From contig OY760427.1 in assembly GCA_963663495.1 (NCBI GenBank), forward strand, positions 412,040-476,039: a stretch of DNA of 64,000 nt. The letters are read 5' to 3'. Position numbers and translations under genes: made by a program. Below are positions 1 to 40,275 of this stretch, one piece after another (position 1 is the stretch's first letter; each line of letters begins with the position of its first letter). This stretch comes from Rhodothermales bacterium (GTDB lineage: Bacteria; Bacteroidota; Rhodothermia; Rhodothermales; Bin80). Below the pieces are notes generated by a model. It worked only from the letters and a program-made list of their open reading frames with translations, had not been told where the DNA came from and did not search any database.

Positions 1-1357
1 CCACTCCCGCGGTCTTATCCGCATAAATCACCCGTCCGGAGACGTACTGCGCGCTCTGCAAAGCGCTCTACAGCCCGTTTGCGGGTGATTCCATGCAGAA
101 AATCGGGAAGGCAGCGCTTTTGTGTACCAGGGGAAGAGTGTTGAAGTACCCTCGCTGCTGCAAAAGCCCCTCCCGTTCGGTATTCGTATCTCTCATGCCT
201 GCTGCTCGGACACCTCATCAGCAAACAATGCCGACCGCATCGGTAATAACTTCGACGCATGCTCCAGTCTGCGCATGCGTGATTCCATCTCCAACAGCAA
301 CAGCGCCAACTGCGCCCGTCGCTCCTGTGGCGGATACCAGTGACGAAGGCCGCGCAACTGCTTGACCAGCCTGTGCGAGGTATGCATCAAACAACGGGTG
401 CTCCTAAGACTCGGACTCAGCATCTCGTACAAGCCCGTACCATGCAGCGTCAGTGTCCGGTCCAGATCCTGCAGCAGCCATTGCGCCGCAGATCGGTTGC
501 ACCGTTGTAACTCGGCATGGATCCGCATCAGGGAACTGTGGGCCTCCTGTCGGTCCGGTAATTGATAAGCACGCGAGATGGCGCCCTTTACACGGCGTTG
601 ATCCTCATCGGCAAGATAGCTGACTACACGCTCGCGCTTGGCCATCTGGCAATGCTGCAGGCATACATGCATGCCCAAGCTCTGACCAAGAACTCGTGTT
701 AGCCCCGCCTGTCCAGATGTGATGCAAAGCAGGCCCCGATCCACACACAAACCGCGCTCGCACAACCCTTGTAGCAGCTGCCGCACCGCCCCCGTATCCT
801 GCACCGTGGACTCTGTAAATCCCAGCATATGCCGATACCCCTCTGCGGTAACGGCCATGCAAAGCAACAATGAACGACCGTACACCGATGTGGCATCCAT
901 CCACAGAGCCACGTAATCTTCCCCGCCTATGTGCCGACCCTCAAAGACCTCCAAGGCCTGGTTGCGCACCTCCCGCATATAGGCATTATCCTGACCACCA
1001 CCACCTTGTAACGAGGCCTCCTTCGCCTCCAGAACACGGGACGACTCCTCTGTTTGCGTCTTGCTGTCCGTAGGGGATGATGGAACCGCATTCACACCCG
1101 GGCTGGCCGACTCCTCTTGTTGCACATCCGACTCCAGACTGCATGTCAGGCGTTGTGCAAGCTCGGTGCATTGTCGCAGGAGAAAATATCGCAGCGACCG
1201 ACCGGATTGACCCGCGTCGCGAAGCATCTGATCAAGCTCCGAAAGATCATCTGAAGGCATCTTGGGAGAAAATAATTGGCTCGTGTAAAAGGCTCCGAAT
1301 ACTCCTAAACATTCGCGACCCTCGTTTTATAAGCCAACTAAATCTGGCACCATGCCC
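1..1357 (-). mobile_element. Window-truncated second copy of the large IS256-derived element (repeat-array edge, transposase-like gene, terminal IR at 1334-1357)
   Basis: 1-192 is the reverse complement of 7175-7370. 193-1260 is near-identical to 6107-7174. The 24-bp end CCAACTAAATCTGGCACCATGCCC (1334-1357) is the complement of the end at 6010-6033. Confidence 0.7.
193..1260 (-). CDS. IS256-family (Mutator-type) transposase-like protein with a degenerate DDE triad
   Basis: 355 aa, aligns with the bona fide IS256 transposase at 10707-12002 (YVALWMDATSV / LCITSGQAGL / STRCLMHTSHRL versus YVTLLIDGKYL / LCVVDGAKGL / TTNIIENVNGQL). The second Asp and the Glu are replaced. Confidence 0.8.
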   Translation of the reverse strand: MPSDDLSELDQMLRDAGQSGRSLRYFLLRQCTELAQRLTCSLESDVQQEESASPGVNAVPSSPTDSKTQTEESSRVLEAKEASLQGGGGQDNAYMREVRNQALEVFEGRHIGGEDYVALWMDATSVYGRSLLLCMAVTAEGYRHMLGFTESTVQDTGAVRQLLQGLCERGLCVDRGLLCITSGQAGLTRVLGQSLGMHVCLQHCQMAKRERVVSYLADEDQRRVKGAISRAYQLPDRQEAHSSLMRIHAELQRCNRSAAQWLLQDLDRTLTLHGTGLYEMLSPSLRSTRCLMHTSHRLVKQLRGLRHWYPPQERRAQLALLLLEMESRMRRLEHASKLLPMRSALFADEVSEQQA

Positions 1358-3220
1358 AGACCCCCAAACGCTCCACCTTGCACCCGCTCTTGAGCACGCG
1401 GAAGAAGTCTTCCACCCGCCACCGCTTGAGATACATGGCCAACACCCGCCGTGCATCCGCTACGCTCCCTACCTCCATGCTGGTCAATAGCATCCACTCC
1501 ACCGGCGGCGCATCCCCCGGAGGCTCCACCTCCAACACATGCACCCCGTACATCACCACCGGCTCCTCCTCGTTCTTCGGATCCGGCAACAAGAACCTCC
1601 CGTAGCGTACCTCCGCATTGACCATCCGGTAACTGCGACCCTTCCGTGCCTGCTTGCGCGCCTGCTTCTTGCGCGCCGTCACCCGATTTATCTCTATCGC
1701 TACATTCCCCGGAGCCTCACCACTGCGCATTACCGCAAACAGCTTGCGATCATCCAACAGCTTGCGATCATGCTTCGCTCGTATCAATACCTCCGCCTTA
1801 CCCTGTCTACGCTGCTCGGCAAACATCGCAAAGCTGTCCGCCTCCCGGTCCGCAACACAGATCACCTGCGTCTCGCCGGACAGCTCCGCCGCCGCCTCGC
1901 ATATATCCTTGAACCCGTCTATCCACTGCTGCGTCCGCGGAACATGCGGACCCTCCTCCGGATCCTTGAAGCTGCCACGCAACACCCCCAACGTCAATCC
2001 ATCCTCCGTCACCGCCAGCGTCGCATGCAACGGCAACCCCAGCGTCTTCGCCGTCGTCTGATTACTCCCTGTTACCTCCAAATCCGTACACGCCGGCCGC
2101 GTACTGTACCGCAACTTCGTCGTGTCCTGGATGCATAACACGGTCTCCTGACTACGCATACGCTCTATCGTACGCCCACGATGCGGCGCCAATATGTTCT
2201 CCGGCGTTACCGTTTTGTCCTTCTTGCTCTCCAATAACCGGTAATGCCCCTTCACCGCCGCGCGGTCCGCATCCGTATGCGCGGTAATGCTGTGGACTAT
2301 CACATCGGCCAACATGGACGTGCTCTTTACCAGTCGCACAGACAACCGCCTGTCTCCCAATGGCGCTCCGCCAAACTCCGTTTCGGCCCACTGCGCACTG
2401 TCAATCCCCTCGTGCGGATCCCTCACCGGACGCAACTCCTCCTCCGGTTCCCCCAGGGTTCCGCGCCATTCTTTGTCCAACTCGTATACATACAGCCCCT
2501 TGGGATCCTTTTCCTTTGCCTCCTTGTGCCGCTTTCCGCCTGCGGTATGGCCGATCAATACAAAATTGTTCACCTCAAAACACGTTCCTTCCCCTTGGGG
2601 ATCCACATACGTTTCGACAACCCAGGGACGGTAACGGTACCGTGCCTGAAAATCATCCGCCAACCGTCTCAACACCTTACCCAGTACATGGCTGGCCAAA
2701 TCCTGACACTGCCCCCGTATCAGAAAACGACTCAAACACACCACACGGTGCAAATGCGCCTTGCGCTGCTCATCACTCCACGCCATCCAGTGCTCCCTGG
2801 GCGCCAGGCACAACGCCGCCGCCGAAAATCCCACCGCTCCCAGGTAACCATGGGCACTGCCTATCAGATAGCGTACCTGCGCTCCCACAAATGTGGTCGT
2901 ACGCCTCGGATGCTCAAAGTGCAGCAACGTGTTCCACACCACACGCTGCTCGTCCGTCTCAACCAACTCAATCGTCAACCCCCGGACACCGTGTACCGTG
3001 TCCGGTAACGCTATCGGATCCGGTACCCGCTCCTCGCGCCTACGCGGTTCCGCCTTAGCCGCATTACAATTCTCGGGCTTGGGCAACACCATCCTCCCCC
3101 GGGCCTCCAACTTCGATAAAGCCTGCGCACAGTTGCTCACCTGCAGTTCGCCCCGTGCATCAACAAACCCGAACTCTTCGCAGACAGCGCGCGCTATCTG
3201 CGTGCGATACCGCCAACGAT
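1358..3220 (-). pseudogene. IS4-family transposase fragment (DUF4338 N-terminal domain + Tn5-like DDE domain), cut at both ends by other IS
   Basis: About 95% identical to 12650-14512 of the intact 769-aa gene. Its 3' side is cut by the IS256-like end at 1357 and its 5' side by the IS66 end at 3221. Confidence 0.85.
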
Positions 3221-3520
3221 GTATCCGTACGGTAAAGTACATGGTAAAGCGGGCTTAGCATTGGTCTGCGTAGTCCGCTTGTAGAGCTTAGTGCAAGGTG
3301 ATTATACGCCGGGTTTGGTGTGCCGATATGGGAATTTCGGAGTGGTGTGCAGCTTATCGTCCAGGCGCCTGAATGCAGGCAGCAATCAGCGTCTTTTGGG
3401 ACAAAAAACATGGGTTTTGGGGAGAAGAACCGGAACATTGTGGAGGACGCACATGCACATGAACTATGCGGTCCAAGGCATCTTTCTCCCCCTCTTCTCC
3501 TGCCGGTGAAGTCCTTTTTC

Positions 3521-3592
3521 AGAGGCTAAGAAACCAAGAGGCTAAGAAACCAAGAGGCTAAGAAACCAAGAGGCTAAGAAACCAAGAGGCTG
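3521..3592 (+). repeat. 16-bp tandem repeat AGAGGCTAAGAAACCA, 4 full units plus a partial one
   Basis: Read directly. IS66 copy 2 has a single unit at the homologous position (about 21240-21260). Confidence 0.9.
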
Positions 3593-3624
3593 AGAACAAG
3601 GATCTGCGAAAACAGGTCCGTCGC

Positions 3625-5190
3625 TTGGAGAAAAAAGCCGATCGTCTATCCAAGAACAACGCGGATATGGCTGCGACAATTGCCGATCAGGCTGCGAAGA
3701 TTAGCCATCTGGAAGATAGGTTGGAACAAGCGCATCGCCTACTCTCTGGCAAAAAGAGTGAGCGTTACACGCCGGCGGACAATGCGCAGCAAGGCCGGTT
3801 GTCTGGAGAGGAACCAGAAGCTGTTGAGCCCGAGGAGGAGGAGGACGAGTATGTCCTGGTAAAGCGCAAGCGGCGTGGGAAGAACAAGCCGGTGCGCGGG
3901 CCGCTTCCGGACCATCTGCCCAGAGAGGTGATCCGCCTTGAGCCGGAGGGCAGCACCGCGGGTATGAAGTACATCGGCGAGGAAGTAACGGAGTACCTGG
4001 AATATGTGCCGGGCTTCACGAGGGTAGTACGGATTGTGCGGCCGAAGTACGTTGTCTGCAAGGAGCCTCGCAAGGGGGTGGTCATAGCGCCGTTGCCGAA
4101 GCGTGTTATACCGAAGGGGAAGGCGGGTCCGGGGTTGTTGGCGTATTTGGCGGTAGCCAAATATGTGGATCATATGCCGCTATACCGGCTGCGGAAGAAG
4201 TTTCAGCGCCATGGCGTGAAGCTATCGGCTGCTACAATGGGGGATTGGATTGCGAAGGTAGCGACGTATCTGGGTCCGTTAGGAGATGCGTTGCGTAAGG
4301 AGGTGCTTCGTAGCGGGTATCTGCAGGTGGATGAGACAATGTTCCCGGTGCAAAAGCCGAAGAAGAAAGGGAAGAAGAAAGGGAAGGAGAAGGAGAAGGA
4401 AGGGAAGAAAAACGAAGGAAAGACGCATCGCGGCTATCTTTGGGTATACCTGGCACCGCGGGCGAAGGTGGTGATGATGGATTACAGCCCGAGCCGTGCG
4501 CGCGCTGGACCGTGGGAATTCTTGCGCGGATATAGAGGGGCGATGCAAACCGACGGGTATGTGGTGTACGATGCGTTTGGTACGCGGGGCGGGATAACGC
4601 TGTTTGGATGTATGGCGCATGCGCGTCGCAAGTTTTATGACTGCAGGAAAAAGGAGCCCAAGAAGGTGCGCCATGTAATGGAGGAAATCCGGCAGTTGTA
4701 TGCGATAGAGCGTGGGTTGCGTAAGGAGGGAGCTGGTCCGGCTCGGCGTGTAGAGGTACGACAGGAGGAGGCACGGCCGGTACTGGAGAAGTTGAAGCCA
4801 TGGCTTGAGGAGAGTCGTGAGCACCGGCCGAGTGCGGGATGGGATGAAGCCGTGGGGTACATGCTCAACAGGTGGGAGAAGCTGGCTTGTTACCTGGAAG
4901 ACGGTGAGGTTGAGATTGACAACAATCTGGTCGAGAACCAGATGCGAGCGATTGCGCTTGGTCGAAAAAACCATCTGTTTGCGGGATCGCATGCGGCAGC
5001 GCAGCGGTCCGCAGTACTGTACGCTCTTTTTGCCACATGCAAGTTGCAATCGACAAACCCGATTGAATGGCTTACCGACGTACTACGCCGTCTTCCGACA
5101 CATCCTGCCGACCGCATGGCTGAACTCTTGCCCCATCATTGGAAAGCTAGTCGGGACTTGCAGCAAGCTACCGTCAAGAAAGCGGCATAG
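3625..5190 (+). CDS. IS66-family transposase (TnpC-type), N-terminus disrupted relative to copy 2
   Basis: 521-aa ORF about 95% identical to the 544-aa ORF at 19688-21322. IS66 hallmarks present (MPLYRLRKKF, DETTFPV-type segment, DNNLVENQMR). The upstream ATG at about 3468 is put out of frame by stops inside the 16-bp repeat expansion. Confidence 0.8.
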   Translation: MEKKADRLSKNNADMAATIADQAAKISHLEDRLEQAHRLLSGKKSERYTPADNAQQGRLSGEEPEAVEPEEEEDEYVLVKRKRRGKNKPVRGPLPDHLPREVIRLEPEGSTAGMKYIGEEVTEYLEYVPGFTRVVRIVRPKYVVCKEPRKGVVIAPLPKRVIPKGKAGPGLLAYLAVAKYVDHMPLYRLRKKFQRHGVKLSAATMGDWIAKVATYLGPLGDALRKEVLRSGYLQVDETMFPVQKPKKKGKKKGKEKEKEGKKNEGKTHRGYLWVYLAPRAKVVMMDYSPSRARAGPWEFLRGYRGAMQTDGYVVYDAFGTRGGITLFGCMAHARRKFYDCRKKEPKKVRHVMEEIRQLYAIERGLRKEGAGPARRVEVRQEEARPVLEKLKPWLEESREHRPSAGWDEAVGYMLNRWEKLACYLEDGEVEIDNNLVENQMRAIALGRKNHLFAGSHAAAQRSAVLYALFATCKLQSTNPIEWLTDVLRRLPTHPADRMAELLPHHWKASRDLQQATVKKAA

Positions 5191-5332
5191 GAGCCCCTAA
5201 ACAGGCGCGCCCGGTCATCCGATAGATCCGTGTACGGGTCTGCGAATACGCTGTCAGGTACTTGACTCCTGCACACCCAACCGACGCTAGCCTATAAACC
5301 TTCGAACCGCGCTCTAACTTACTCTAATTGAG

Positions 5333-5503
5333 GGGAATTATATGGCTGAGTACCCATCTGCTGAGGTTTTCGAATTAATTGCAGTTTTTTCGCGAAAAGC
5401 GGGAACTGATTATGAAAAACTGGCGCAAGCCATCCTGACCGCACCACCACAGCGCAATAATAACGGGTGCCAAAACGCGTGGGTACTCAGCTATATAATT
5501 CCC
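5333..5503. mobile_element. 171-bp MITE with near-perfect 24-bp terminal inverted repeats, inserted into the right arm of IS66 copy 1
   Basis: GGGAATTATATGGCTGAGTACCCA ... TGGGTACTCAGCTATATAATTCCC. Flanked by the direct repeat TAATTGAG (5325-5332 and 5504-5511). The uninterrupted site with a single TAATTGAG is seen in IS66 copy 2 (about 19545-19560, complement). Confidence 0.85.
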
Positions 5504-5555
5504 TAATTGAGAGAGTAAATACCCTCGGTTATAATGTACTTCACCGGACGGATAC

Positions 5556-5742
5556 TTACCAGGAGCATGACGCCCACGCCCCTTGGTTTTCCCCACACAC
5601 TGAAACCCCGCAGCCCGAAAACACGTGCCGCGATGTTCGGGGCCCACAAAGGTCTCTATCACCCACGGCACATACCCGTAACGGTTCTCAAAATCCTCCG
5701 GAAAACAACGCAATACCTTCCCCAGTGTATGGCTGGCAAGGT
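5556..5742 (-). pseudogene. Internal fragment of a second, diverged DUF4338-type IS4 transposase gene
   Basis: Translates to LASHTLGKVLRCFPEDFENRYGYVPWVIETFVGPEHRGTCFRAAGFQCVGKTKGRGRH, homologous to residues of the 769-aa protein. It continues the reading frame of 14828-15430 across the IS4 insertion. Confidence 0.6.
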
Positions 5743-6106
5743 CTGCCCTGTACCCATAAATCATCCATTACGGTTCGATTGTTCGTCAGGTATGGTCAAA
5801 TATCGCTGGCATGGCTGTCGGAATATCTCGGGTATTTCGGCCTAACAGGTATGGTGTGTGACTTGAGGTGAATAATGCCATCCTCTCGTGCGGATACGCG
5901 ATCTCTTCCTGCGCCGCTTCCCTTGGCGCTGCATTGCCTACATCCACGAACCCTCGGCTGCAGTCTCCTGGCGATACTTCTGCCTCCAGTAATTCAACGG
6001 TCCGTACGAGGGCATGGTGCCAGATTTAGTTGGCTTATAAAACGAGGGTCGCGAATGTTTAGGAGTATTCGGAGCCTTTTACACGAGCCAATTATTTTCT
6101 TCCAAG

Positions 6107-7174
6107 ATGCCTTCAGATGATCTTTCGGAGCTTGATCAGATGCTTCGCGACGCGGGTCAATCCGGTCGGTCGCTGCGATATTTTCTCCTGCGACAATGCA
6201 CCGAGCTTGCACAACGCCTGACATGCAGTCTGGAGTCGGATGTGCAACAAGAGGAGTCGGCCAGCCCGGGTGTGAATGCGGTTCCATCATCCCCTACGGA
6301 CGGCAAGACGCAAACAGAGGAGTCGTCCCGTGTTCTGGAGGCGAAGGAGGCCTCGTTACAAGGTGGTGGTGGTCAGGATAATGCCTATATGCGGGAGGTG
6401 CGCAACCAGGCCTTGGAGGTCTTTGAGAGTCGGCACATAGGCGGGGAAGATTACGTGGCTCTGTGGATGGATGCCACATCGGTGTACGGTCGTTCATTGT
6501 TGCTTTGCATGGCCGTTACCGCAGAGGGGTATCGGCATATGCTGGGATTTACAGAGTCCACGGTGCAGGATACGGGGGCGGTGCGGCAGCTGCTACAAGG
6601 GTTGTGCGAGCGCGGTTTGTGTGTGGATCGGGGCCTGCTTTGCATCACATCTGGACAGGCGGGGCTAACACGAGTTCTTGGTCAGAGCTTGGGCATGCAT
6701 GTATGCCTGCAGCATTGCCAGATGGCCAAGCGCGAGCGTGTAGTCAGCTATCTTGCCGATGAGGATCAACGCCGTGTAAAGGGCGCCATCTCGCGTGCTT
6801 ATCAATTACCGGACCGACAGGAGGCCCACAGTTCCCTGATGCGGATCCATGCCGAGTTACAACGGTGCAACCGATCTGCGGCGCAATGGCTGCTGCAGGA
6901 TCTGGACCGAACACTGACGCTGCATGGTACGGGCTTGTACGAGATGCTGAGTCCGAGTCTTAGGAGCACCCGTTGTTTGATGCATACCTCGCACAGGCTG
7001 GTCAAGCAGTTGCGCGGCCTTCGTCACTGGTATCCGCCACAGGAGCGACGGGCGCAGTTGGCGCTGTTGCTGTTGGAGATGGAATCACGCATGCGCAGAC
7101 TGGAGCATGCGTCGAAGTTATTACCGATGCGGTCGGCATTGTTTGCTGATGAGGTGTCCGAGCAGCAGGCATGA
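6107..7174 (+). CDS. IS256-family transposase-like protein with a degenerate DDE triad (copy 2)
   Basis: 355 aa, 2 substitutions relative to 193-1260. D retained in WMDATS, S replaces the second D (CITSGQAGL), M replaces E when the ...RHW / ...RRW anchors are aligned. Confidence 0.8.
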   Translation: MPSDDLSELDQMLRDAGQSGRSLRYFLLRQCTELAQRLTCSLESDVQQEESASPGVNAVPSSPTDGKTQTEESSRVLEAKEASLQGGGGQDNAYMREVRNQALEVFESRHIGGEDYVALWMDATSVYGRSLLLCMAVTAEGYRHMLGFTESTVQDTGAVRQLLQGLCERGLCVDRGLLCITSGQAGLTRVLGQSLGMHVCLQHCQMAKRERVVSYLADEDQRRVKGAISRAYQLPDRQEAHSSLMRIHAELQRCNRSAAQWLLQDLDRTLTLHGTGLYEMLSPSLRSTRCLMHTSHRLVKQLRGLRHWYPPQERRAQLALLLLEMESRMRRLEHASKLLPMRSALFADEVSEQQA

Positions 7175-10100
7175 GAGATACGAATACCGAATGGGAGGGG
7201 CTTTTACAGCAGCGAGGGTACTTCAACACTCTTCCCCTAGTACACAAAAGCGCTGCCTTCCCGATTTTCTGCCTGGAATCACCCGCAAACGGGCTGTAGA
7301 GTACTTTTAGAGCGCGCAGTACGTCTCCGGACGGGTGATTATGCGGATAAGACCACGGGAGCGGCAACGGAGATCGCCTCCATTGGGCCAAAAAGGGGCT
7401 CGTGCAGGCTGTTTTTGTACAAACAGCTGGCTTTTCGCCGCACAGCGGCCCGTAGAACCTCAATAAACGCTCTCGCAGGCCCGGTTTCCTGCTGCGGCCG
7501 GACACACCCGGTGTGCAGATCAGGCTTCAAGTACACAAAAAACGCGGATATCCCCGTTTTTCTGCCCGGAATCACCCGTAAACGGCCTGCCGAGCGCCTT
7601 TCAGAGCGCGCAATACGTCTCTGGACGGGTAATTATGCGGATAAGACCACGGGAGCGGCAACGGAGAGCGCCTCCATTGGGCCAAAAAGGGGCTCGTGCA
7701 GGCTGTTTTTGGTCCAACAGCTGGCTTTTCGCCGCACAGCGGCCCGTGGAACCTCAATAAACGCTCTCGCAGGCCCGGTTTCCTGCTGCGGCCGGACACA
7801 CCCGGTATGCAGATCAGGCTTCAAGTGCACAACAAACACGGATATCCCCGTTCCGGAATCACCGGTAAACGGCCTGCCGAGCGCCTTTCAGAGCGCGCAA
7901 TACGTCTCTGGACGGGTAATTATGCGGATAAGACCACGGGAGCGGCAACGGAGAGCGCCTCCGTTGGGCCAAAAAGGGGCTCGTGCAGGCTGTTTTTGGT
8001 CCAACAGCTGGCTTTTCGCCGCACAGCGGCCCGTAGAACCTCAATAAACACTCTCGCAGGCCCGGTTTCCTGCTGCACCCGGTATGCAGATCAGGCTTCA
8101 AGTGCACAACAAACGCGGATATCCCCGTTTTTCTGCCCGGCATCACCTGCAAACGGCCTGCCGAGCGTCTTTCAGAGTGCGCAATACGTCTCTGGACGGG
8201 TAATCATGCGGATAAGACCACGGGAGCGGCAACGGAAAGCACCTCCATTGGGCGAAAAAGGCCTTGTGCAGGCCTGTAAGGATGCCAATTGCTGTGCACA
8301 GAGGGATGACCAAGGCCATCAAGGAAGCAGACTGCCCTGTGTTAAAGAGCTGCCGAGCTGGCTAACAGCACTATTGGAACGCGTACGATTGATCCATGCT
8401 TGCCAGAACAAGAATGTGGCCGTGCAATACTACTATGAGCACGATATCCGGGCGCACCGTGCCATGGTTGAAAAGATTGGCACGTTTTCGGAGCTAATCA
8501 CACGCATGGCAGGCTACAATGACTCCAGATCGTACGCTTTAAGCCGCTATAGCGATGCCAGCGCACGCAGAAGGGCTCAACGAAGCCGTTCGCGTGCAGA
8601 AACGCGCCCATATCTGCCACCAAAACGCCGACGACACCATACATCGCGCGTGTAGGTTATTGCGTGCACGGAAAACGGTGCATAAAGTATTCAATATTTG
8701 TAACCTGCACGGAATGGCATAACACCGCTGTTTTTGTACAAACAGCCGACTTGTTGCCGCACAGCAGCCCGTGGAGTCGCTATAACCTCTCTCAAAGGCC
8801 CGGTTTCCTGCTGCAGCAGGACCCACCCGGTATGCAGATCCGGCTTCAAGTGCACAATAAACGCGGATATCCCCGTTTTTCTGCCCGGAATCACTTGTAA
8901 ACGGCCTTGCAGAGCACTTTGCAGAGCGTGCAAAACGTCTCCAGACGGGTAACTATGCGGATAATACCGCGGGAGCGGCAACAGGAAGCGCCTCCATTGG
9001 GCCAAAAGGGCCTCGCACAAGGCCTGTAAGGATGCCAATTGCTGTGCACAGAGGGATGACCAAGGCCATCAAGGAAGCAGACTGCCCTGCGTTAAAGAGC
9101 TGCCGAGCTGGCTAACAGCACTATTGGAACGCGTACGATTGATCCATGCTTGCCAGAACAAGAATGTGGACGTGCAATACTACTATGAGCACGATATCCG
9201 GGCGCACCGTGCCACGGTTGAAAAGATTGGCACGTTTTCGGAGCTAATCACACGCATGGCAGGCTACAATGACTCCAGATCGTACGCTTTAAGCCGCTAT
9301 AGCGATGCCAGCGCACGCAAAAGGGCTCAACGAAGCCGTTCGCGTGCAGAAACGCGCCCATATCTGCCACCAAAACGCCGACGACACCATACATCACGCG
9401 TGTAGGTTATTGCGTGCACGGAAAACGGTGCATAAAGTATTCAATATTTGTAACCTGCACGGAATGGTATAACACCGCTGTTTTTGTACAAACAGCCGAC
9501 TTTTTGCCGCACAGCAGCCCGTGGAGCTGCTATAACCTCTCTCAAAGGCCCGGTTTCCTGCTGCGGCCGGACACACCCGGTATGCAAGATCAGGCTTCAA
9601 GTGCACAAAAAACACGGATATCCCCGTTCCGGAATCACCGGTAAACGGCCTGCCGAGCGCCTTTCAGAGCGCGCAATACGTCTCTGGATGGGTAATCATG
9701 CGGATAAGACCACGGGAGTGGCAACAGGAAGCGCCTCCATTGGGCCAAAAAGGGGCTCGTGCAGGCTGTTTTTGGTCCAACAGCTGGCTTTTCGCCGCAC
9801 AGCGGCCCGTAGAACCTCAATAAACACTCTCGCAGGCCCGGTTTCCTGCTGCACCCGGTATGCAAGATCAGGCTTCAAGTGCACAACAAACACGGATATC
9901 CCCGTTTTTCTGCCCGGCATCACCTGCAAACGGCCTGCCGAGCGTCTTTCAGAGTGCGCAATACGTCTCTGGACGGGTAATCATGCGGATAAGACCACGG
10001 GAGCGGCAACGGAAAGCACCTCCATTGGGCGAAAAAGGCCTTGTGCAGGCCTGTAAGGATGCCAATTGCTGTGCACAGAGGGATGACCAAGGCCATCAAG

Positions 10101-10600
10101 GAAGCAGACTGCCCTGTGTTAAAGAGCTGCCGAGCTGGCTAACAGCACTATTGGAACGCGTACGATTGATCCATGCTTGCCAGAACAAGAATGTGGCCGT
10201 GCAATACTACTATGAGCACGATATCCGGGCGCACCGTGCCATGGTTGAAAAGATTGGCACGTTTTCGGAGCTAATCACACGCATGGCAGGCTACAATGAC
10301 TCCAGATCGTACGCTTTAAGCCGCTATAGCGATGCCAGCGCACGCAAAAGGGCTCAACGAAGCCGTTCGCGTGCAGAAACGCGCCCATATCTGCCACCAA
10401 AACGCCGACGACACCATACATCGCGCGTGTAGGTTATTGCGTGCACGGAAAACGGTGCATAAAGTATTCAATATTTGTAACCTGCACGGAATGGCATAAC
10501 ACCGCTGTTTTTGTACAAACAGCCGACTTGTTGCCGCACAGCAGCCCGTGGAGCTGCTATAACCTCTCTCAAAGGCCCGGTTTCCTGCTGCAGGCATCTA
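7175..10600 (+). repeat. Higher-order tandem repeat array (about 285-294-bp units interleaved with three about 430-bp blocks)
   Basis: The motif GTCTC(C/T)GGA(C/T)GGGT starts at 7323, 7617, 7904, 8188, 8937, 9680 and 9965. The block GGCCTGTAAGGATGCC starts at 8271, 9021 and 10048, and each carries a 93-codon TTG-initiated ORF (8374-8655, 9124-9405, 10151-10432). Conserved hairpins: GCCGC-ACA-GCGGC, GCAGG-CCCGGTTT-CCTGC, GCTGTT-loop-AACAGC. Confidence 0.85.
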
Positions 10601-10706
10601 CAAAGTCATCCTCGTCGTTGGAAATCCTTACTATTGAACCATCTGGGGGCTCTGCATTATGCTACTTGGAGCCCTAATCATCCAACACCCTAACACACCC
10701 ATCGTT

Positions 10707-12002
10707 ATGCAAGCATGTGAGACAACAACCAAGCCCTCAACCAAGGCCAGGAAGCGAGTGAAGCACTTCCGGGATATAATTGATCAAGATCGGGAGACCA
10801 AGATGGCACTCTTGCGATGCAGCGGTAGCATTGAGGAGCTGTTGGCTAAATTGGTCATGGAAGAGGAGGTAGAGTCGCTCTGTGGCAAGCGCTACGCGAG
10901 AGACGATGTGCACGACGGACGTTACGAGAGATGGGGGACCAATCCGGGTTCAATCAGGATCATGGGGAAACGCCTGAAGATCCGGGTGCAGCGCGTACGG
11001 GATAAGAAAGAGGGCAAGGAGCGTCCTCTGGAGACCTATTGTGAGCTACGCAATGCATCGGTTGAAGAGGAGAACAATCTGACGGAAAACATTCTTCTTG
11101 GGATCAGCCAGCGGGATTATCACCGTGTGGTCAGCGCGTTTGCGGACAGTTATGGATTGAGCGCTTCCTCGGTCAGTCGCACTTTCAGGAAGAAGAGTGC
11201 GGAGGCCCTCAAGAAGTTCGAAGAACGCGATCTGTCTTCGGAAACCTATGTGACGCTGCTGATAGATGGCAAGTACTTGCAGGAGTGCCAGATCGTGCTG
11301 TGTATGGGCATTACGGCAGACGGAAAGAAGGAGATCTTGGGCATGGTGGAGACGACCACGGAGAATGCGGAGGCGATTGCAGGTTTGTTGGAAGGCCTGA
11401 TCAATCGCGGCCTGTGCTATGACCAGGGCCTGCTGTGCGTTGTGGATGGAGCGAAGGGGCTTTACAAGGCGGTAAAGGATGTCTTCGGCGACTACACGCA
11501 GGTGCAGCGTTGTACCTGGCACAAGCGGGAGAATGTGGTGAGCAAGCTCACGAAAAAGGAGGATGCGCCCAAGGTGCGTCGGAAGATGCAGGAGGCGTAT
11601 CGTGAAGACACGTACGACGACGCAAAAGCGGGGCTTGAGACCCTACGGGATGACTTGGAGGAACAAGGGGAGGAAGCGGCCGCACGTAGCCTGGAAGAGG
11701 GCATGGAAGAGACGCTGACACTGCACAGGCTGGGTGTGGCGGATACGGTCGGATGCAGTCTGCTAACCACCAACATCATTGAGAATGTCAACGGCCAGCT
11801 GGCTAATCGAACGCGGCGGATCAGACGTTGGGTAAACTCAGATCAACGTCACCGATGGGTAGCAATGGCTATGCTGGAAACCGAACCCCGATTATGTAAG
11901 CTTGGCTGCGCAAAACACCTTCCGAAGCTCCAAAAAGCCCTGCTAAAATGTGTGCCGAAACCGTATCTTGGGCCCACTCCTAAGCCGGTCTTGAAAAAAT
12001 AG
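10707..12002 (+). CDS. IS256-family transposase, apparently intact
   Basis: Mutator-type motifs LLIDGKYL, CVVDGAKGL, TTNIIENVNGQLANRTRR. ATG at 10707 is preferred over the non-ATG start at 10659 in the ORF track. Confidence 0.9.
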   Translation: MQACETTTKPSTKARKRVKHFRDIIDQDRETKMALLRCSGSIEELLAKLVMEEEVESLCGKRYARDDVHDGRYERWGTNPGSIRIMGKRLKIRVQRVRDKKEGKERPLETYCELRNASVEEENNLTENILLGISQRDYHRVVSAFADSYGLSASSVSRTFRKKSAEALKKFEERDLSSETYVTLLIDGKYLQECQIVLCMGITADGKKEILGMVETTTENAEAIAGLLEGLINRGLCYDQGLLCVVDGAKGLYKAVKDVFGDYTQVQRCTWHKRENVVSKLTKKEDAPKVRRKMQEAYREDTYDDAKAGLETLRDDLEEQGEEAAARSLEEGMEETLTLHRLGVADTVGCSLLTTNIIENVNGQLANRTRRIRRWVNSDQRHRWVAMAMLETEPRLCKLGCAKHLPKLQKALLKCVPKPYLGPTPKPVLKK

Positions 12003-12279
12003 ACCAACTAAATCTGGCACCATGCCCGTACGAAGATGCCCTGCTCTGCGCAAGACGCCGCTGCGGACCGGGTCCTTTCGTTATACTGCTCTACCAGCGG
12101 AAACATCTCTTCCGCCGTACGTCTGGGCTGTACCAGGCGGGCGGTCCGGGGTCTGGGTTCTCACGTCTACGGGTAAGCTCTACAGAACCCGTCACCTAAT
12201 CAAGATGCAAGTTCACCGCACGCTCACGCAGGTGTAGCCACTGGGGCATAGGCCCACATCAGGCAGGTTGATATGCCAT

Positions 12280-14589
12280 TTATATGAACCCAGATGAATT
12301 CCCGTGCGAACATGCACTCAATTGTTCGTCTCTTACCTCGTATCCCAATGTCATTAGGTGTAACCTCTCTAGGCCACGCCACATGATCTGGTAACCCACC
12401 GGTCCATCACGAGTGCGGTTCTGATAACCGCCGAGCACCGCTACGATCAGGATAGCAGCTCCCAAAGTACTGGGCTTCGGCAGCTTTACCCGTGCTGCAT
12501 ATCCTTCCAAGAATCGCAGCTCCATCTCCGTGAAAAAGACATCCGCGTCCAGCTCCGGCACCTCCCGACCCAATTGCACCAAGGTCATGACGCGCCAGGA
12601 TATCACACAATACATCGTTATTGCTCGCTGCAGACGCAACGAGGTACGCAGACCCAAACGCTCTACCTTGCACCCACTCTTGAGCACGCGGAAGAAGTCT
12701 TCCACCCGCCACCGCTTGAGATACATTGCCAACACCCGCCGTGCATCCGCTACGCTCCCTACCTCCATGCTGGTCAATAGCATCCACTCCACCGGCAGCG
12801 CATCCCCCGGAGGCTCCACCTCCAACACATGCACCCCGTACATCACCACCGGCTCCTCCTCGTTCTTCGGATCCGGCAACAAGAACATCCCGTAGCGTAC
12901 CTCCGCATTGACCATCCGGTAACTGCGACCCTTCCGTGCCTGCTTGCGCGCCTGCTTCTTGCGCGCCGTCACCCGCTGTATCTCTATCTCCACATTCCCC
13001 GGAGCCTTACCACTGCGCATTACCGCAAACAGCTTGCGATCATCCAACAGCTTGCGATCATGCTTCGCTCGTATCAATACCTCCGCCTTACCCTGTCTGC
13101 GCTGCTCGGCAAACATAGCAAAGCTGTCCGCCTCCCGGTCCGCAACACAGATCACCTGCGTCTCGCCGGACAGCTCCTCCGCCGCCTCGCATATATCCTT
13201 GAACCCGTCTATCCACTGCTGCGTCCGTGGAGCATGCGGACCCTCCTCCGGATCCTTGAAGCTGCCACGCAACACCCCCAACGTCAATCCATCCTCCGTC
13301 ACCACCAGCGTCGCATGCAACGGCAACCCCAGCGTCTTCGCCGTCGTCTGATTACTCCCTATTACCTCCAAATCCGTACACGCCGGCCGCGTACTGTACC
13401 GCAACTTCGTCGTGTCCTGGATGCATAACACGGTCTCCTGACTACGCATGCGCTCTATCGTACGCCCACGATGCGGCGCCAATATGTTCTCCGGCGTTAC
13501 CGTTTTGTCCTTCTTGCTCTCCAATAACCGGTAATGCCCCTTCACCGCCGCGCGGTCCGCATCCGTATGCGCGGTAATGCTGTGGCCTATCACATCGGCC
13601 AACATGGACGTACTCTTTACCAGTCGCACAGACAACCGCCTGTCTCCCAATGGCGCTCCGCCAAACTCCGTTTCGGCCCACTGCGCACTGTCTATCCCCT
13701 CGTGCGGATCCCTCACCGGACGCAACTCCTCCTCCGGTTCCCCCAAGGTCCCGCGCCATTCTTTGTCCAACTCGTATACATACAGCCCCTTGGGATCCTC
13801 TTCCTTTGCCTCCTTGTGCCGCTTTCCGCCTGCGGTATGGCCGATCAATACAAAATTGTTCACCTCAAAACACGCTCCTTCCCCTTGGGGATCTACATAC
13901 GTTTCGACAACCCAGGGACGGTAACAGTACCGTGCCTGAAAATCATCCGCCAACCGTCTCAATACGTTACCCAGTACATGGCTGGCCAAATCCTGACACT
14001 GCCCCCGTATCAGAAAACGACTCAAACACACCACACGGTGCAAATGCGCCTTGCGCTGCTCATCACTCCACGCCATCCAGTGCTCTCTGGGCGCCAGGCA
14101 CAACGCCGCCGCCGAAAATCCCACCGCTCCCAGGTAACCATGGGCACTGCCTATCAGATAGCGTACCTGCGCTCCCACAAATGTGGTCGTACGCCTCGGA
14201 TGCTCAAAGTGCAGCAACGTGTTCCACACCATACGCTGCTCGTCCGTCTCAACCAACTCAATCGTCAACCCCCGGACACCGTGTACCGTGTCCGGTAACG
14301 CTATCGGATCCGGTACCCGCTCCTCGCGCCTACGCGGTTCCGCCTTAGCCGCATTACAATTCTCGGGCTTGGGCAACACAATCCTCCCCCGGGCCTCCAA
14401 CTTCGATAAAGCCTGCGCACAGTTGCTCACCTGCGGTTCGCCCCGTGCATCAACAAACCCGAACTCTTCACAGACAGCGCGCGCTATCTGCGTGCGAAAC
14501 CGCCAACGATCGTCGGCAAGAACCCTGTCCAAACGCTCTCCATTGCAGGGAGCGGTGAGCGTTCGTAAGACCTGACTTCGTTGAAACAT
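12280..14589 (-). CDS. IS4-family transposase with N-terminal DUF4338-like domain, full length (769 aa)
   Basis: N-terminal FEHPRRTTTFVGAQVRYLIGS...WVVETYVDP (DUF4338-type). C-terminal IS4 signature YLKRWRVEDFFRVLK (Y-2-R-3-E-6-K). Confidence 0.85.
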   Translation of the reverse strand: MFQRSQVLRTLTAPCNGERLDRVLADDRWRFRTQIARAVCEEFGFVDARGEPQVSNCAQALSKLEARGRIVLPKPENCNAAKAEPRRREERVPDPIALPDTVHGVRGLTIELVETDEQRMVWNTLLHFEHPRRTTTFVGAQVRYLIGSAHGYLGAVGFSAAALCLAPREHWMAWSDEQRKAHLHRVVCLSRFLIRGQCQDLASHVLGNVLRRLADDFQARYCYRPWVVETYVDPQGEGACFEVNNFVLIGHTAGGKRHKEAKEEDPKGLYVYELDKEWRGTLGEPEEELRPVRDPHEGIDSAQWAETEFGGAPLGDRRLSVRLVKSTSMLADVIGHSITAHTDADRAAVKGHYRLLESKKDKTVTPENILAPHRGRTIERMRSQETVLCIQDTTKLRYSTRPACTDLEVIGSNQTTAKTLGLPLHATLVVTEDGLTLGVLRGSFKDPEEGPHAPRTQQWIDGFKDICEAAEELSGETQVICVADREADSFAMFAEQRRQGKAEVLIRAKHDRKLLDDRKLFAVMRSGKAPGNVEIEIQRVTARKKQARKQARKGRSYRMVNAEVRYGMFLLPDPKNEEEPVVMYGVHVLEVEPPGDALPVEWMLLTSMEVGSVADARRVLAMYLKRWRVEDFFRVLKSGCKVERLGLRTSLRLQRAITMYCVISWRVMTLVQLGREVPELDADVFFTEMELRFLEGYAARVKLPKPSTLGAAILIVAVLGGYQNRTRDGPVGYQIMWRGLERLHLMTLGYEVRDEQLSACSHGNSSGFI

Positions 14590-14827
14590 GCCGCAACATA
14601 AAGAACAAGTAGCAAAATGTCAAATACATGAAGTGGTAGGATGGCAGTGGAAGCGGCGCAGGAAGAGATCGCGTATCCGCACGAGAGGACGGCATTATTC
14701 ACCTCAAGTCACACACCATACCTGTCAGGTCGAAATACCCGAGATATTCCGACAGCCATGCCAGCGAGAGTTGACCAGAACTGACGAACAATCGAACCGT
14801 GATGGATGATTTATGGGGGAAGGGCAG

Positions 14828-15430
14828 GGCAAGGTTCTTGATCCGCACCATGGAGCGAATCAGGAACCGATTCAAACCCACGACATGGTCCCGGTAGTCC
14901 TCACGCTGCTCGTCCGACCACGCCATCCATCTGTCGCGCGCCTTCAGATACAGCCCCGCAGCCGCAAAGCCTATCGCTCCGATGTAGCCATGCTCGCTCC
15001 CGACAAGATAGCGCAACTGCCGTCCGACAAACCGTGGCGCACACAACGGATGCTCGGCCTCCACAAGCGTATTCCAGATCGCACGCTGCCCGGCATCTTC
15101 TACCAATTCCAACTCCAGGCCGTGCACATCCTTGAGCAACGTCGGCACTCCAACAGGCGCAGGTACCGGTTCGTCCAACAAACGAGGCACTGTGCTTCGG
15201 ACCACGCGCTTCGGTGCAGGCAAGGACAGCGCACCCTCGGCTTCGAGTGTCTTGAGCGCCTGCAAACAACTGCTGTGCTGCACACGCCCTAAGGCATCAT
15301 AAAAGCCAAACGCTTCACTCACACGGCGACTTATCGCTGTGCGACCATCGTCAGGATGCTGCTCCATGACCTCTGTCAACTCACATGGAGCGGCACGCAG
15401 TGTCTTCAGAATCTGATGTTGAACCACCAT
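14828..15430 (-). pseudogene. N-terminal half of the diverged DUF4338-type transposase gene that was the target of the IS4 insertion
   Basis: Translates to MVVQHQILKTL...RFLIRSMVRIKNLA. The frame continues at 5742 downward (SHTLGKV...) once the IS4 element and one copy of GGCAAGGT are removed. Confidence 0.65.
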
Positions 15431-23027: not shown

Positions 23028-24544
23028 ATTGTTCCACGCGAGATGTGGTTTACGTTCACAGGACGAGCGATAGCGGTTGTTCCATCAAAAAGAGATTTGA
23101 CGTTTCTCGCAATTTTGAATTCAATTTCGGACTGCTATGCCAACAGGCATGCGCACCGTGGAGACCAATCTTAGGGGACTTGAAAACTGTTGTGGGTGCA
23201 GTAGAATTTGCGGACAGGTCCTTCCGTCGCCCAACGAATGGTTGGGGGCGCCAGCTTCGTGCGACCATCCCGGTGTCCGATTATGGGGAGTGGAACCGGG
23301 AAGCAGTTGTATCGCGATTAAGGAATACTCTTAATCAGCTAACTGGTGATTCTTGGAATTTGACATTTTATAAAAGGAAAACTGAACCAAATCATGTGTC
23401 CCAACTTTGCTTCGCCCTGGATCCAGCGATATCAGCAGTAATTCCGTACAGCGATGGATTGGATTCATATTCAGTTTACGTTATCGAGAGAGCGCGGCTT
23501 GGAGACGAGATCGCGAAAGTTCGGGTCCAGAATCGCGTTGCCACACGTTCAAGCTTGGAGAGGTGTTTCACTCCCGCGCTATTTCGAATTAGCACCGAAG
23601 ACGACTACAAGAAGGAATCGAGTTATAGGTCGAGAGCCTTCAAGTTTTTGGCACACGGTGCTATCATGGCATACCTTGCAAGCGCGAAAAGCATTATTGT
23701 ACCTGAAAGCGGACAATCCTCCTTCTATTCGGTACTAGTTCGCAATGCAATGGAGTATCCCCACTATGGCAGCCATCCCGAGTTCACCAGAAAGATGGAA
23801 CTGTTCTTGAACGCGCTGCTCGGCACCAATTTGCGAATTGAGACTCCGCAACTGTGGTTTACGAAAGGTTAAACCTTATCTAAATGCATATCATTGTGTC
23901 CGCACGGAACGTGGTCCAAAACAAGGTCATGTTGGATGCCCAACTTTCTTAGCTATGCTTTTGGCGAATCGCGTCAGTGCGGAATCTGTGCTTCTTGTCT
24001 GCTGCGGCGAATGTCCGTTCACTCTGCAAATTGCATCGAACCGGTCGGGACTTATTTGTTTGAAGACCTAAACGTCAGTATTCTCGAAGATGCAGTAATC
24101 AAAGACACAAGATCAGCTTGCATCGAACCGGCCGAGACTTATTTGTTTGAAGACCTAAACGTCAGTACTCTCGAAGATGCAGTAATCAAAGACCCAAGAT
24201 CAGCTTGCATCGAACCGGCCGAGACTTATTTGTTTGAAGACCTAAACGTCAGTACTCTCGAAGATGCAGTAATCAAAGACACAAGATCGGCAAGAAAGGA
24301 TGCCAACTATTTCAAGCATTACGCAATTGCCGGTGTCAGGGCGATGAGTGATTTTGCCAGTCTTTCCCTTGAAGATGTGCAGGATGAAAGCCTTCGGTTG
24401 ATCCGCCTGAGTCGCGACTCGAAACCCGACTCCGGCTATATACGGAATCAGCTGATTACACTAGTCAACCGGCATAAGGAAGAATGGTCTTCCTTTAAGC
24501 AATCGCTTCTGTCACAATCCTTCCTAAGAAAATGGGCAGCATAG
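23012..24544 (+). pseudogene. QueC-like PP-loop ATPase (QatC/DpdC-like family member) interrupted by one in-frame TAA (23870-23872)
   Basis: PP-loop-like IPYSDGLDSYSV. After the stop the same frame continues TLSKC...HGTWSKTRSCW...QCGICASCLLRR, matching the QueC C-terminal Cys cluster. 23012 and 23894 are in the same frame. Confidence 0.65.
24031..24291 (+). repeat. 3 x 87-bp in-frame tandem repeat inside the QueC-like C-terminal region
   Basis: Units start at 24031, 24118 and 24205 and encode CIEP(V/A)(G/E)TYLFEDLNVS(I/T)LEDAVIKD(T/P)RSA. Units 2 and 3 differ at about 2 positions. Confidence 0.9.
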
Positions 24545-26424: not shown

Positions 26425-27135
26425 TAGGTTAGTATTTTGCCTGAATTCGAGGAATCCAATAGTGTTCGGGATGTGAGCACTCAGGAGATTGTGTTAAGAC
26501 CCCGAGCTCAGACCTACAAATTGCATGAATAGTTGTGTCGCTCGGCGGGGGAGATGTTTCCGCGTGTGGAATTGTTCGAGCAGAAGACGCGGGGTACAGG
26601 TGTCTGATAGATTGGCATGAGGTATCTCGTAGGCACAAGAGTCCTGTAAGTGCAGTGAGGCATGACTAATAGGCGGATGGGAGATCGATCCTATCCGAGA
26701 TGTGCTGGGGCGAACGAATATAATGTGTTCATTTGCGGTAGTTGGATTGGAAGCTAAGAACGGCGAGGAGGAGAGTCGTGGCTGGGAGAGGCAACTCGAT
26801 TCGCTACTGAGTATCAGAAGGCTTGTGGTCACGCCATCAACGGGGAAGGAGGGTTTGTCAACATAATTGGCCCATATTCAACCAACAAGACGATCACTTG
26901 GCCCTTATTCTTGGGGAAGAATGCCTGTCGCGGGATGCAGACTGGGTCTGAGTTTCAATTTTGTCAGCTAAGCCGGCCATTGGCATTTGATTCCCAGACA
27001 ATCACCATATGACGCTACTGAGTTTGCTATCCCAACTAGGTCTGACCACACTTTTCCGGGACCATAGCCCAAACACGGGTCGTCTATGGTCAGATTTTCG
27101 ATTTCAAGGCGTTGAGTCACAGCGGCGGTGCCACC

Positions 27136-34583: not shown

Positions 34584-35387
34584 GTCCAAATAGCATTGGG
34601 TCAAACGCGCTGGCATCGTCTATCGTGCTAGTATGCAGGCCTGTCAGGAAAGCAAGGCCGCAGACTACACGGAAAAAATTTGTTCAGGAATTACAAGAGG
34701 AGGTGCGCACTGCTATAAAGGTGCTTACCAGCGCTAATACTGCTCCCGTCGATGTGGCGCAAGCAGCGATCGGACCGGGCATGGCGGTATTTACGCGCTA
34801 CGAGCGAATCATCGACGCACGAGGGAATAGATTAAGCGTGTCGGACGCTCTTTCCCTCACCAACAAGGTGCTCGATGACATCACTTCAGAAGAGGAGGGC
34901 GATCTGGATACAGACAGTCGCTGGTCCTTGAGCTGGTTCAAGCAGCATGGATTTGCAGAGGGAACGTATGGTGATGCTGAGCAGCTATCCAAAGCCAAGA
35001 ATACCAGCGTGTCGGGATTGGTCGAGGCGGGCGTGCTTATCTCGGGAGGTGGCGCGGTGCGGCTGCTCAAGCCCGAGGAACTTCCAGAAGATTGGGATCC
35101 TGAACAGGATATGCGGCTCACCGCATGGGAAACCGTGCATCATCTGATTCGAGCACTTGACACGGGAGGCGAAATGGAAGCCGCGAACATTATTGCTCGA
35201 CTAGGAGCGGGAGCGGAAAGCGCGAGAGACTTGTGTTATCGATTGTATGTGCTATGTGAGCGGTCGAAGCGGATGGCCGAGGGCTTTGCCTACAACCGCC
35301 TCGTACAGAGCTGGCCGGAGATTACCCGGCTTGCCAAGAATATCCCCCATGAGCAGGGGACGCTAGATCTAGACTAAACTGTATTCC

Positions 35388-38690: not shown

Positions 38691-38929
38691 CCGATTCTTC
38701 CTCTATGCCACAAGGGATTCACTAAGCCATTGCTTTTGGTGATCAGGGAGTCTCATTTTTCGACTGCGCCGGGTCCAAGGATCGTTCCGAAGCCTGATTT
38801 GCGTACCCAAGTGGCTGGTTAAGACTAGTGGCGTAGGCGAGGGCATGGTTGCAAAACTAGTGGTATTTCGAAAATTGGGTTGGGGTTGATTTGGGGGATT
38901 TCGTCCCCATTCACCATCCATTTTCACGC

Positions 38930-39835: not shown

Positions 39836-39948
39836 CTGCCCTGTACCCATAAATCATCCAACACGGTTCGATTGTTCGTCAGGTATGGTCAAATATCGCT
39901 GGCATGGCTGTCGGAATATCTCGGGTATTTCGGCCTAACAGGTATGGT
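39836..39948 (+). mobile_element. Solo fragment of the IS4 long terminal repeat
   Basis: CTGCCCTGTACCCATAAATCATCC... collinear with 5743-5855. Similarity ends at 39948. Confidence 0.75.
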
Positions 39949-39974
39949 CCTCCCTTATTCATAAGGGAGGGAAA

Positions 39975-40275
39975 AAGGGCTTCACCGGCAGGAGGGGGGG
40001 GAGAGAGAGAAAGATGCCTTGGGCCGCACAATTTATGTACATGTGCTTCCTCCACAGTGTTCCGATTCTTCTACCCCAAAACCCATGTTTTTTGTCCCCA
40101 ACAGCGCTGATTGCTGACTGCATTCAGGCGCTTGGACGATAAGCTGCACACCACTCCGAAATTCCCATATCGGCACACCAAACCCGGCGTATAATCACCT
40201 TGCACTAAGCTCTACAAGCGGACTACGCAGACCAATGCTAAGCCCGCTTTACCATGTACTTCACCGTACGGATTC
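39975..40275 (-). mobile_element. Remnant of an IS66 left arm (IR plus 5' leader, no transposase)
   Basis: Reverse complement is collinear with 3221 to about 3517. Ends ...CCATGTACTTCACCGTACGGATTC. Confidence 0.7.

Follow-up and report, generated by a model that had tools for sequence, protein, structure and literature searches.

Two-gene IS256-family insertion sequences of Rhodothermales-type genomes carry a catalytically dead transposase paralogue, a candidate brake on transposition

Classical members of the IS256 family of insertion sequences (IS) carry, according to ISfinder descriptions, one transposase gene in 1.2-1.5 kb, and to our knowledge elements of this family have been described as single-gene IS. 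We know of one solved IS256-family transposase, the TnpA protein of ISCth4 (PDB 6XG8, 6XGW and 6XGX). Here we analyse a 64,000-nucleotide stretch of a Rhodothermales bacterium (assembly GCA_963663495.1, contig OY760427.1, positions 412,040 to 476,039; hereafter the window), in which a 6-kb element of this family encodes a catalytically dead paralogue (orfA) upstream of a canonical transposase gene (tnpA), with an expanded repeat array between the two. A full-text literature search, with ISfinder outside its scope, retrieved no description of an IS256 element with a dead paralogue.

Accessory transposase-derived products are known from other elements. Tn5/IS50 encodes Inh, a transposase derivative lacking the N-terminal DNA-binding part, which is thought to poison the transposase through inactive mixed multimers. 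In IS3 and IS911 a small upstream product, also named OrfA, and in IS1 its counterpart InsA modulate the downstream transposase; these products represent the DNA-binding part and are fused to OrfB by frameshifting. In Paramecium, catalytically inactive PiggyMac-like partners are kept by selection, work with the active protein and are required for activity (PMC6143343). Within the IS256 family itself, ISCth4 TnpA comprises a dimerisation domain of two leucine-rich helices (residues 1-56), an N-terminal domain for DNA binding (56-108), a helix-turn-helix domain (108-165) and a catalytic domain (165-261 and 325-407) interrupted by an insertion domain bearing a CxxH motif (261-325). Its dimer is asymmetric: the N-terminal domains of one protomer bind the element end, and the other protomer, whose DNA-binding domain is disordered, provides the active site in trans (PMC7780238).

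The window element spans 6011-12026 (6016 bp) and is organised as left repeat, orfA, spacer, tnpA and right repeat, with the following features:

6003-6010, unstranded: left copy of the target duplication, CGTACGAG, matching 12027-12034 at 7 of 8 positions
6011-6038, plus strand: left terminal inverted repeat, GGCATGGTGCCAGATTTAGTTGGCTTAT, akin to the repeats of the related loci L008, L009, L010 and L012 (GGCRWGGTGCCA...TTAGTTG)
6107-7174, plus strand: orfA, encoding a 355-aa catalytically dead IS256 transposase paralogue with the triad D-S-M
7175-10591, plus strand: expanded orfA-tnpA spacer, made of a part-unit and ~290-nt units with a terminator-like palindrome at every unit junction
10659-12002, plus strand: tnpA, encoding a canonical 447-aa IS256-family DDE transposase with the motifs LIDGK, VVDGAKG, TTNIIEN and CTWH
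11999-12026, minus strand: right terminal inverted repeat
12027-12034, unstranded: right copy of the target duplication, CGTACGAA

Exact matches to the 24-nt sequence GGGCATGGTGCCAGATTTAGTTGG lie at 6010-6033 (plus strand), 12004-12027 (minus strand) and 1334-1357 (minus strand), the last being the end of a second copy of the element, and zero further sites exist in the 64-kb window at up to three mismatches, with zero expected in shuffled sequences. The 18-nt core of this repeat, again at up to three mismatches, returned the identical three sites, and a 13-nt core with three mismatches gave chance-level matches only, none inside the 6-kb element; the initial annotation was therefore right to confine the exact repeat to the two element ends and the end of the second copy. 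The terminal pair lengthens to 29 nt with 93% complementarity, and the element ends were taken as GGCATGG...CCATGCC by analogy with relatives such as L010 (GGCGTGG...CCACGCC). The resemblance between the outside flanks, also noticed at the outset, is real and corresponds to the 8-bp target duplication. Moreover, a 99%-identical element on a metagenome contig (L001) occupies an unrelated site between perfect 8-bp duplications CTCTATTG, so that the whole unit is found at another locus. An uninterrupted copy of the exact window insertion site was not present among the fetched loci.

A composite transposon would have a repeat pair for each flanking IS, and internal repeat copies were not found. 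Given one repeat pair, the absence of internal repeats and, at two independent loci, target duplications that flank the entire unit, the 6-kb segment constitutes one insertion sequence belonging to a two-gene IS256 subgroup and, as originally proposed, no composite of two IS; what is found inserted, between target duplications of 8-9 bp, is the unit from outer repeat to outer repeat. Terminal repeats of a few tens of base pairs (24 nt exact and 24-29 nt in all, with homologous repeats in eight relatives) and target duplications of 8-9 bp across the window element and its relatives agree with the IS256 family. Unlike its classical members, which hold a single open reading frame (ORF) in 1.2-1.5 kb, window-type elements add the dead paralogue upstream and measure ~2.5 kb in basal relatives and 6.0 kb in the window.

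Family membership is equally apparent from TnpA, which scores 124 bits on the Pfam model PF00872 Transposase_mut (cut-off 21) and 216 bits on the NCBIfam IS256 model NF033543 (cut-off 150), carries the DDE triad and the CxxH motif, and matches the ISCth4 TnpA structure entry by sequence too. Its longest ORF begins at 10659, and comparison with L010 suggests that the real start is likely M17 at 10707. On its motifs, tnpA is predicted to be the sole catalytically competent gene of the unit, and it would move the unit by copy-out/paste-in through a circular intermediate, as in IS256 and ISCth4 (PMC7780238).

By contrast, OrfA lacks both the intact D-D-E triad and the full-length model match of an active IS256 transposase. 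It reaches 39 bits on Transposase_mut, over profile positions 146-320 only, and 83 bits on NF033543, below the cut-off of 150 and over profile positions 107-303 only. BLASTP aligns it with TnpA residues 176-429 at 33% identity (124 bits), and the alignment columns bear out the D-S-M triad read in the initial annotation: the first D is kept (WMDAT versus LIDGK in TnpA), the second D is replaced by S (CITSG versus VVDGA) and E by M (CLMHT versus IIENV). The loss of both residues is family-wide: S, P, A, G or R occupies the second-D position, and the E position varies between members or is deleted. The main clade has a nearly invariant first D, in place of which a distant clade has K, Q, R or G, and many other positions are invariant across the family, for example in RGL, GLLC, QxC, NRSAA, TLT and SLRxT.

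Profile-profile comparison (hhalign) aligns OrfA residues 91-344 with TnpA residues 170-425 only and finds no OrfA counterpart of the N-terminal DNA-binding and helix-turn-helix domains of TnpA. In the AlphaFold (AF2) model of OrfA (mean pLDDT 85), two helices (residues 4-15 and 18-45) are followed by a disordered Pro/Ser-rich linker (45-68) and, beyond residue 68, by an RNase H-like fold with an all-helical insertion. The top and only strong Foldseek matches of this model are the ISCth4 TnpA chains (E 5e-11), on which it superposes best. Most OrfA members retain the insertion domain's CxxH motif (QHCQxHKR); in window-clade OrfA it reads CQMA (residues 204-207, window 6716-6727), and the distant clade is without the histidine too. 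OrfA is a paralogue of TnpA in which the scaffold of the catalytic and insertion domains has been kept and the active site lost. A role in defence found no support in the form of a PADLOC match.

OrfA thus resembles Inh of Tn5/IS50 in being devoid of DNA-binding domains. Inh, however, is translated from the same gene as the transposase and has an intact active site, whereas OrfA is the product of a separate, long-diverged gene with a destroyed active site. With the upstream genes of IS3, IS911 and IS1 it shares its position before the transposase gene and, in the distant clade, an overlap between the two genes; unlike them, window-type OrfA duplicates the catalytic part and is without DNA-binding domains. 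A frameshift fusion of OrfA to TnpA was considered as a general mechanism and rejected, as fusion is excluded in most members by spacers of 40-3485 nt with stop codons.

A search of 5.8 billion proteins with the 355-aa sequence recovered 34 clusters only, mostly 340-360 aa long and 42-99% identical, which a genome scan places in Rhodothermales metagenome-assembled genomes. HMMER over 1.84 billion cluster representatives found ~15-20 full-length OrfA-type clusters only, below which ordinary 400-430-aa transposases follow at ~213 bits and lower; exact-sequence look-ups of window OrfA and of the proteins P0006 and P0014 returned no record. At every locus with an intact orfA (L001, L003-L006, L008-L010, L011 with two copies, L012 and L013) a canonical IS256 tnpA comes next on the same strand, and the same order holds in the distant clade represented by L017 and L018 (~28% identical), where the genes overlap by 4 and 17 nt. 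Altogether, this arrangement recurs in ~15 elements from other contigs at protein identities of 28-99%. Wherever the ends could be located, one related repeat pair encloses both genes: in L003 (2494 bp), L005 (2556 bp), L006 (2542 bp), L008 (3416 bp), L009 (3471 bp), L010 (2813 bp), L012 (2502 bp) and also L018. Target duplications match at 8 of 8 positions in L001, L005, L010 and L011 and at 9 of 9 in L006; none was recognisable in L003, L008, L009 and L012.

The two genes also diverge together. Identity to the window element drops in parallel for orfA and tnpA (66/62, 62/60, 54/55, 53/53 and 42/45%), and the ratio of nonsynonymous to synonymous substitution rates (dN/dS) is 0.14-0.33 for orfA at informative divergence and 0.18-0.38 for tnpA; between two 99%-identical copies of window orfA it is 0.64, a value resting on very few changes. 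The OrfA reading frame is intact and its length conserved throughout the family. Gene order, enclosing repeats, parallel divergence and dN/dS together indicate that the dead paralogue is a core gene and neither a decayed neighbour nor part of a composite: orfA is a maintained component of a two-gene IS256 subgroup, co-diverging with tnpA under comparable purifying selection, and not the cargo for which it had been taken. The elements form an undescribed two-gene branch of IS256, known so far from Rhodothermales-type genomes only.

The region is saturated with IS (IS4-like, IS66, IS5-like and IS256-like), which would lend itself to a chance or nested juxtaposition of a decayed IS256 element with an active one. 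The same order, enclosed by a single pair of repeats, recurs in ~15 elements with identities as low as 28%, a dN/dS below 1, an intact frame and a conserved length, and this speaks against such an origin just as the missing internal repeats speak against a composite transposon. We therefore regard these explanations, together with the notion that the array is an assembly artefact (discussed below), as very improbable.

In one relative, L011, the two-gene element occurs twice at 941-6345, in head-to-tail order. The second copy is without the left repeat and the first 31 orfA codons and begins 3 nt past the right repeat of the first, and its missing start, together with an 8-bp duplication TTCAGCGA derived from orfA codons, shows that one copy inserted into the 5' end of another.

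Between orfA and tnpA, basal members have a spacer of 40-70 nt or overlapping genes, and across the family spacers range from 40 to 3485 nt. In the window the spacer holds seven ~290-nt units (the last partial), a part-unit and three 454-nt inserts, all counts being as assembled:

7237-7407, plus strand: part-unit, directly past the orfA stop codon
7408, 7702, 7989, 8727, 9477 and 9765, plus strand: starts of the ~290-nt units (lengths 294, 287, 284, 296, 288 and 285 nt)
8273-8726, plus strand: first copy of an orphan 454-nt insert (insert B), directly past the hairpin stem of a unit
9023-9476 and 10050-10503, plus strand: second and third copies of insert B, 99-100% identical
10504-10591, plus strand: partial last unit

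The tandem repeats reported in the initial annotation are therefore present, although they do not form a simple array, the ~290-nt units being broken by the three inserts. Each unit junction is a long palindrome, GGGCCAAAAAGGGGCTCGTGCAGGCTGTTTTTGGTCC, which looks like a two-way intrinsic terminator and whose stem insert B adjoins. The closest clade, L008 and L009, which come from different samples, carries two copies of a 459-nt repeat composed of the orfA 3' end, a ~170-nt module and the palindrome; nhmmer (E 1e-12 to 1e-16) equates this module with the conserved 3' half of the unit found in the window. The array module was not found in most of the family, and the 99%-identical L001 element has ~1.8 units and no insert B, compared with seven units and three inserts in the window. 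Because the basal spacer is short or absent and copy number differs between near-identical elements, the array is not conserved cargo travelling with the transposase, as had been supposed; it is a tandem amplification, clade-specific and still variable, of a segment comprising the 3' end of orfA, the spacer and the terminator-like hairpin, and an orphan insert has been added to it. Its likely effect, judging from the repeated hairpins and the 3.5 kb of spacer, would be to uncouple tnpA expression from orfA and to lower it; the array may equally be neutral.

In L001 (11565-11640) the end of the array is deleted at a CTCAA microhomology, which removes the likely tnpA start M17 and joins the array reading frame to tnpA in a called gene of 561 aa; this copy may be crippled or using a downstream start.

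Long tandem repeats are error-prone in assemblies, and the much shorter L001 array with its microhomology junction could be read as a sign that the array is an artefact. Against this, both window copies have the same array edge at 99% identity, and L008 and L009 independently show the two-copy repeat.

The array could alternatively be functional. Each unit would then provide a control of tnpA, whether as a small RNA, an antisense transcript or a protein-binding site, and would work with OrfA. The 3' 170 nt of the unit are recognisable in L008 and L009 and in a solo copy away from the IS; one unit folds somewhat better than shuffled sequences on the plus strand (z = -2.75); four units share a match to a sigma-70-like promoter on their minus strand; and the unequal unit lengths, which leave no consistent reading frame across the array, and the lack of 3-periodicity in module substitutions speak against coding. 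The ORFs of the array unit and of insert B have no Pfam match either, and the insert B ORF has no homologue among the 5.8 billion proteins. Conversely, the module is missing from most of the family, the number of units changes from ~2 to 7 between 99%-identical elements, and OrfA has no recognisable nucleic-acid-binding domains. No Rfam family matched the array at E <= 1, and at gathering thresholds the whole window yielded only a tRNA. For 12-13 copies of the module, the consensus structures from RNAalifold were weak, and covariation was essentially nil on both strands (covariation terms of -0.65 and -0.14 kcal/mol), most of the fold-energy signal of the unit is the junction palindrome, and a scan of Joint Genome Institute (JGI) metagenomes with the conserved module motif produced three chance matches whose flanks were without similarity. 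Considering both sides, we find a functional RNA or DNA-site array improbable. Insert B folds no better than shuffles on either strand; as a candidate miniature transposon it was rejected for want of convincing terminal inverted repeats.

What, then, might a conserved dead transposase do for its element? Reading OrfA against the ISCth4 structures suggests the following scheme. OrfA would be made first from a common operon, so that the brake would always accompany the enzyme, and would pair with TnpA through its two leucine-rich N-terminal helices. In an asymmetric dimer of the ISCth4 type, end binding falls to one protomer and cleavage in trans to the other, and OrfA should be capable of neither; OrfA:TnpA heterodimers would consequently be inert and OrfA would constitute a built-in dominant-negative brake on transposition. 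We favour this element-encoded brake only tentatively, by analogy, and give it a little less than even chances. The broader account in which it is embedded, namely a two-gene IS256 element with a dead paralogue as brake and a clade-specific array, seems to us on the whole the probable explanation. Of the two roles suggested for the paralogue at the outset, that of a regulator is thus plausible, whereas that of an end-binding factor is unlikely given the hhalign result on DNA-binding domains.

Several observations weigh against this account. The N-terminal helices of OrfA have no profile-level homology to the TnpA dimerisation domain in hhalign, and their likeness to it rests on the two-helix shape and an LLR-type motif in MAFFT alignments only; loss of the CxxH histidine in window-clade OrfA would fit any non-catalytic role; and strict conservation in every element is as compatible with a required subunit as with an inhibitor. 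The target duplication of the window element has one mismatch. The ~170-nt 3' module is 65-67% identical, with hardly any indels, between clades whose synonymous sites are near saturation, and nhmmer finds solo modules away from any orfA or tnpA in L008 (14773-14900, E 1.7e-6) and L002 (8639-8726, minus strand, E 2.5e-3), suggesting that the module may exist on its own in these genomes. This conservation and the solo copy make some function of the module conceivable.

The opposite sign of the OrfA effect has to be considered as well. OrfA could be an obligate non-catalytic subunit of a heteromeric transposase, providing structural support, synapsis or target capture, in which case the asymmetry of the identical chains of ISCth4 would have been hard-wired into two genes. 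Strict conservation of orfA beside tnpA in every intact element, purifying selection on orfA as strong as that on tnpA, and the gene overlap of 4 or 17 nt in the distant clade, which suggests translational coupling, are all in keeping with an obligate partner. So is the proliferation of the elements, whether OrfA hinders or helps it: several diverged lineages, some of them multi-copy, coexist in one 5.9-Mb genome, and cluster P0014, for example, has 35 member sequences. The best structural match of OrfA, furthermore, is chain B of ISCth4, the protomer with the disordered N-terminal DNA-binding domain (PMC7780238). That non-end-binding protomer, however, supplies the active site, which OrfA does not have, so that a 1:1 heterodimer would be unable to perform the first cleavage. 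In addition, the array sets the two genes 3.5 kb apart in the window clade with no obvious loss of the element, which is easier to reconcile with a dispensable modulator, and we know of no precedent in bacterial IS for a heteromeric transposase with an obligate non-catalytic subunit. All considered, we judge the obligate subunit rather unlikely. A combined arrangement, with OrfA as a dedicated non-catalytic protomer encoded by the element and the conserved 170-nt module perhaps as an added control RNA or binding site, appears similarly unlikely.

Like the PiggyMac-like partners of Paramecium, OrfA is a dead transposase paralogue under selection; those proteins are eukaryotic, domesticated and host-encoded, whereas OrfA and TnpA form a pair inside a mobile bacterial IS, in which OrfA may either restrain or support TnpA. 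What is new here is the retention, inside an IS, of a catalytically dead transposase duplicate without DNA-binding domains through 28-99% divergence under purifying selection. How a transposase dimer that is asymmetric assembles and is controlled became a question with the ISCth4 structures, and the two-gene elements offer a natural test of how a copy-out/paste-in transpososome of this kind is assembled or restrained. Should OrfA be a brake, bacteria would offer a clean example of a dominant-negative paralogue encoded by the element itself; should it be a required subunit, the elements would encode a heteromeric copy-out/paste-in transposase. For genome annotation the consequence is practical, in that pipelines will label orfA a transposase or a pseudogene and count one element as two IS.

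Further traces of the lineage, and the element that received the insertion, lie in the same window:

1-1357, minus strand: second copy of the element, inverted and ended by the window edge, inside another IS4-like copy
5743-6002, unstranded: end of the IS4/Tn5-like host element into which the unit inserted, with the other part at 12035-14834
12280-14589, minus strand: host transposase gene (769 aa), with its other copy at 1338-3242 (minus strand)
38841-39835, plus strand: relic of a different lineage of two-gene IS, with a diverged left repeat GGGCATGGTTGCAAAACTAGTGG and no tnpA remaining

The inverted second copy, which the initial annotation had placed correctly at a different site of another IS4 copy, comprises the repeat (1334-1357), orfA (193-1260) and the first part-unit of the array (1-192); its positions 4-1357 are 7361-6010 inverted, at 99.0% identity, and its insertion site is uninterrupted in the other IS4-like copy. 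The third, diverged degenerate paralogue was likewise recognised from the outset: it extends over 38891-39964, shares 58% identity with OrfA over residues 3-310, has its own diverged repeat at ~38841 and is broken at 39835 by an IS4-end fragment. This fragment (39836-40273) consists of ~440 bp made up of the two ends of the IS4-like element (113 bp resembling 5743-5855 and 304 bp resembling 3223-3520) without an intervening transposase and looks like an internally deleted derivative of the IS4-like element, resembling a miniature inverted-repeat transposable element (MITE). A 3'-end fragment of another IS256-type transposase is found at 62421-62633, with 59% protein identity to tnpA residues 376-446 and 82% DNA identity to 11806-11997.

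Positions 5743-5925 repeat 14649-14827 in inverted orientation, so the IS4-like host extends over ~5743-14834 with the 6-kb unit inside. Without the insertion this IS4/Tn5-like element measures ~3.07 kb and has unusually long terminal inverted repeats of ~180 bp (ends ~5743-5925 and 14649-14834); its transposase has an N-terminal DruA (DUF4338) domain followed by Tn5-type DNA-binding, DDE and dimerisation domains. The IS4-like element was hit twice, at different sites, by the two-gene IS256 element.

Elsewhere in the window, PADLOC identifies an Hma defence system at 27112-38690 (hmaA at 27112-30642, then hmaB, and hmaC at 35388-38690), in which hmaC has an extra N-terminal Swt1-like HEPN domain and an IS5/IS1182-like transposase gene at 32973-34328 divides the hmaB methylase into two parts, 30624-32228 and 34394-35377. 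A Dcm-type cytosine methylase, a 989-aa protein (HATPase_c_3, HEF_HK and HATPase_c) and a 532-aa Response_reg_2 protein follow one another at 40312-46084 and look like a methylase-linked sensor module beside the defence island. Two short tandem repeats were also recorded: an 87-nt repeat at 24031-24288 (3.0 copies, 97% identity) that overlaps the ORF at 23894-24544, and the 16-nt repeat AGAGGCTAAGAAACCA at 3521-3596 (4.8 copies), located just upstream of an IS66-family transposase gene at 3625-5190.

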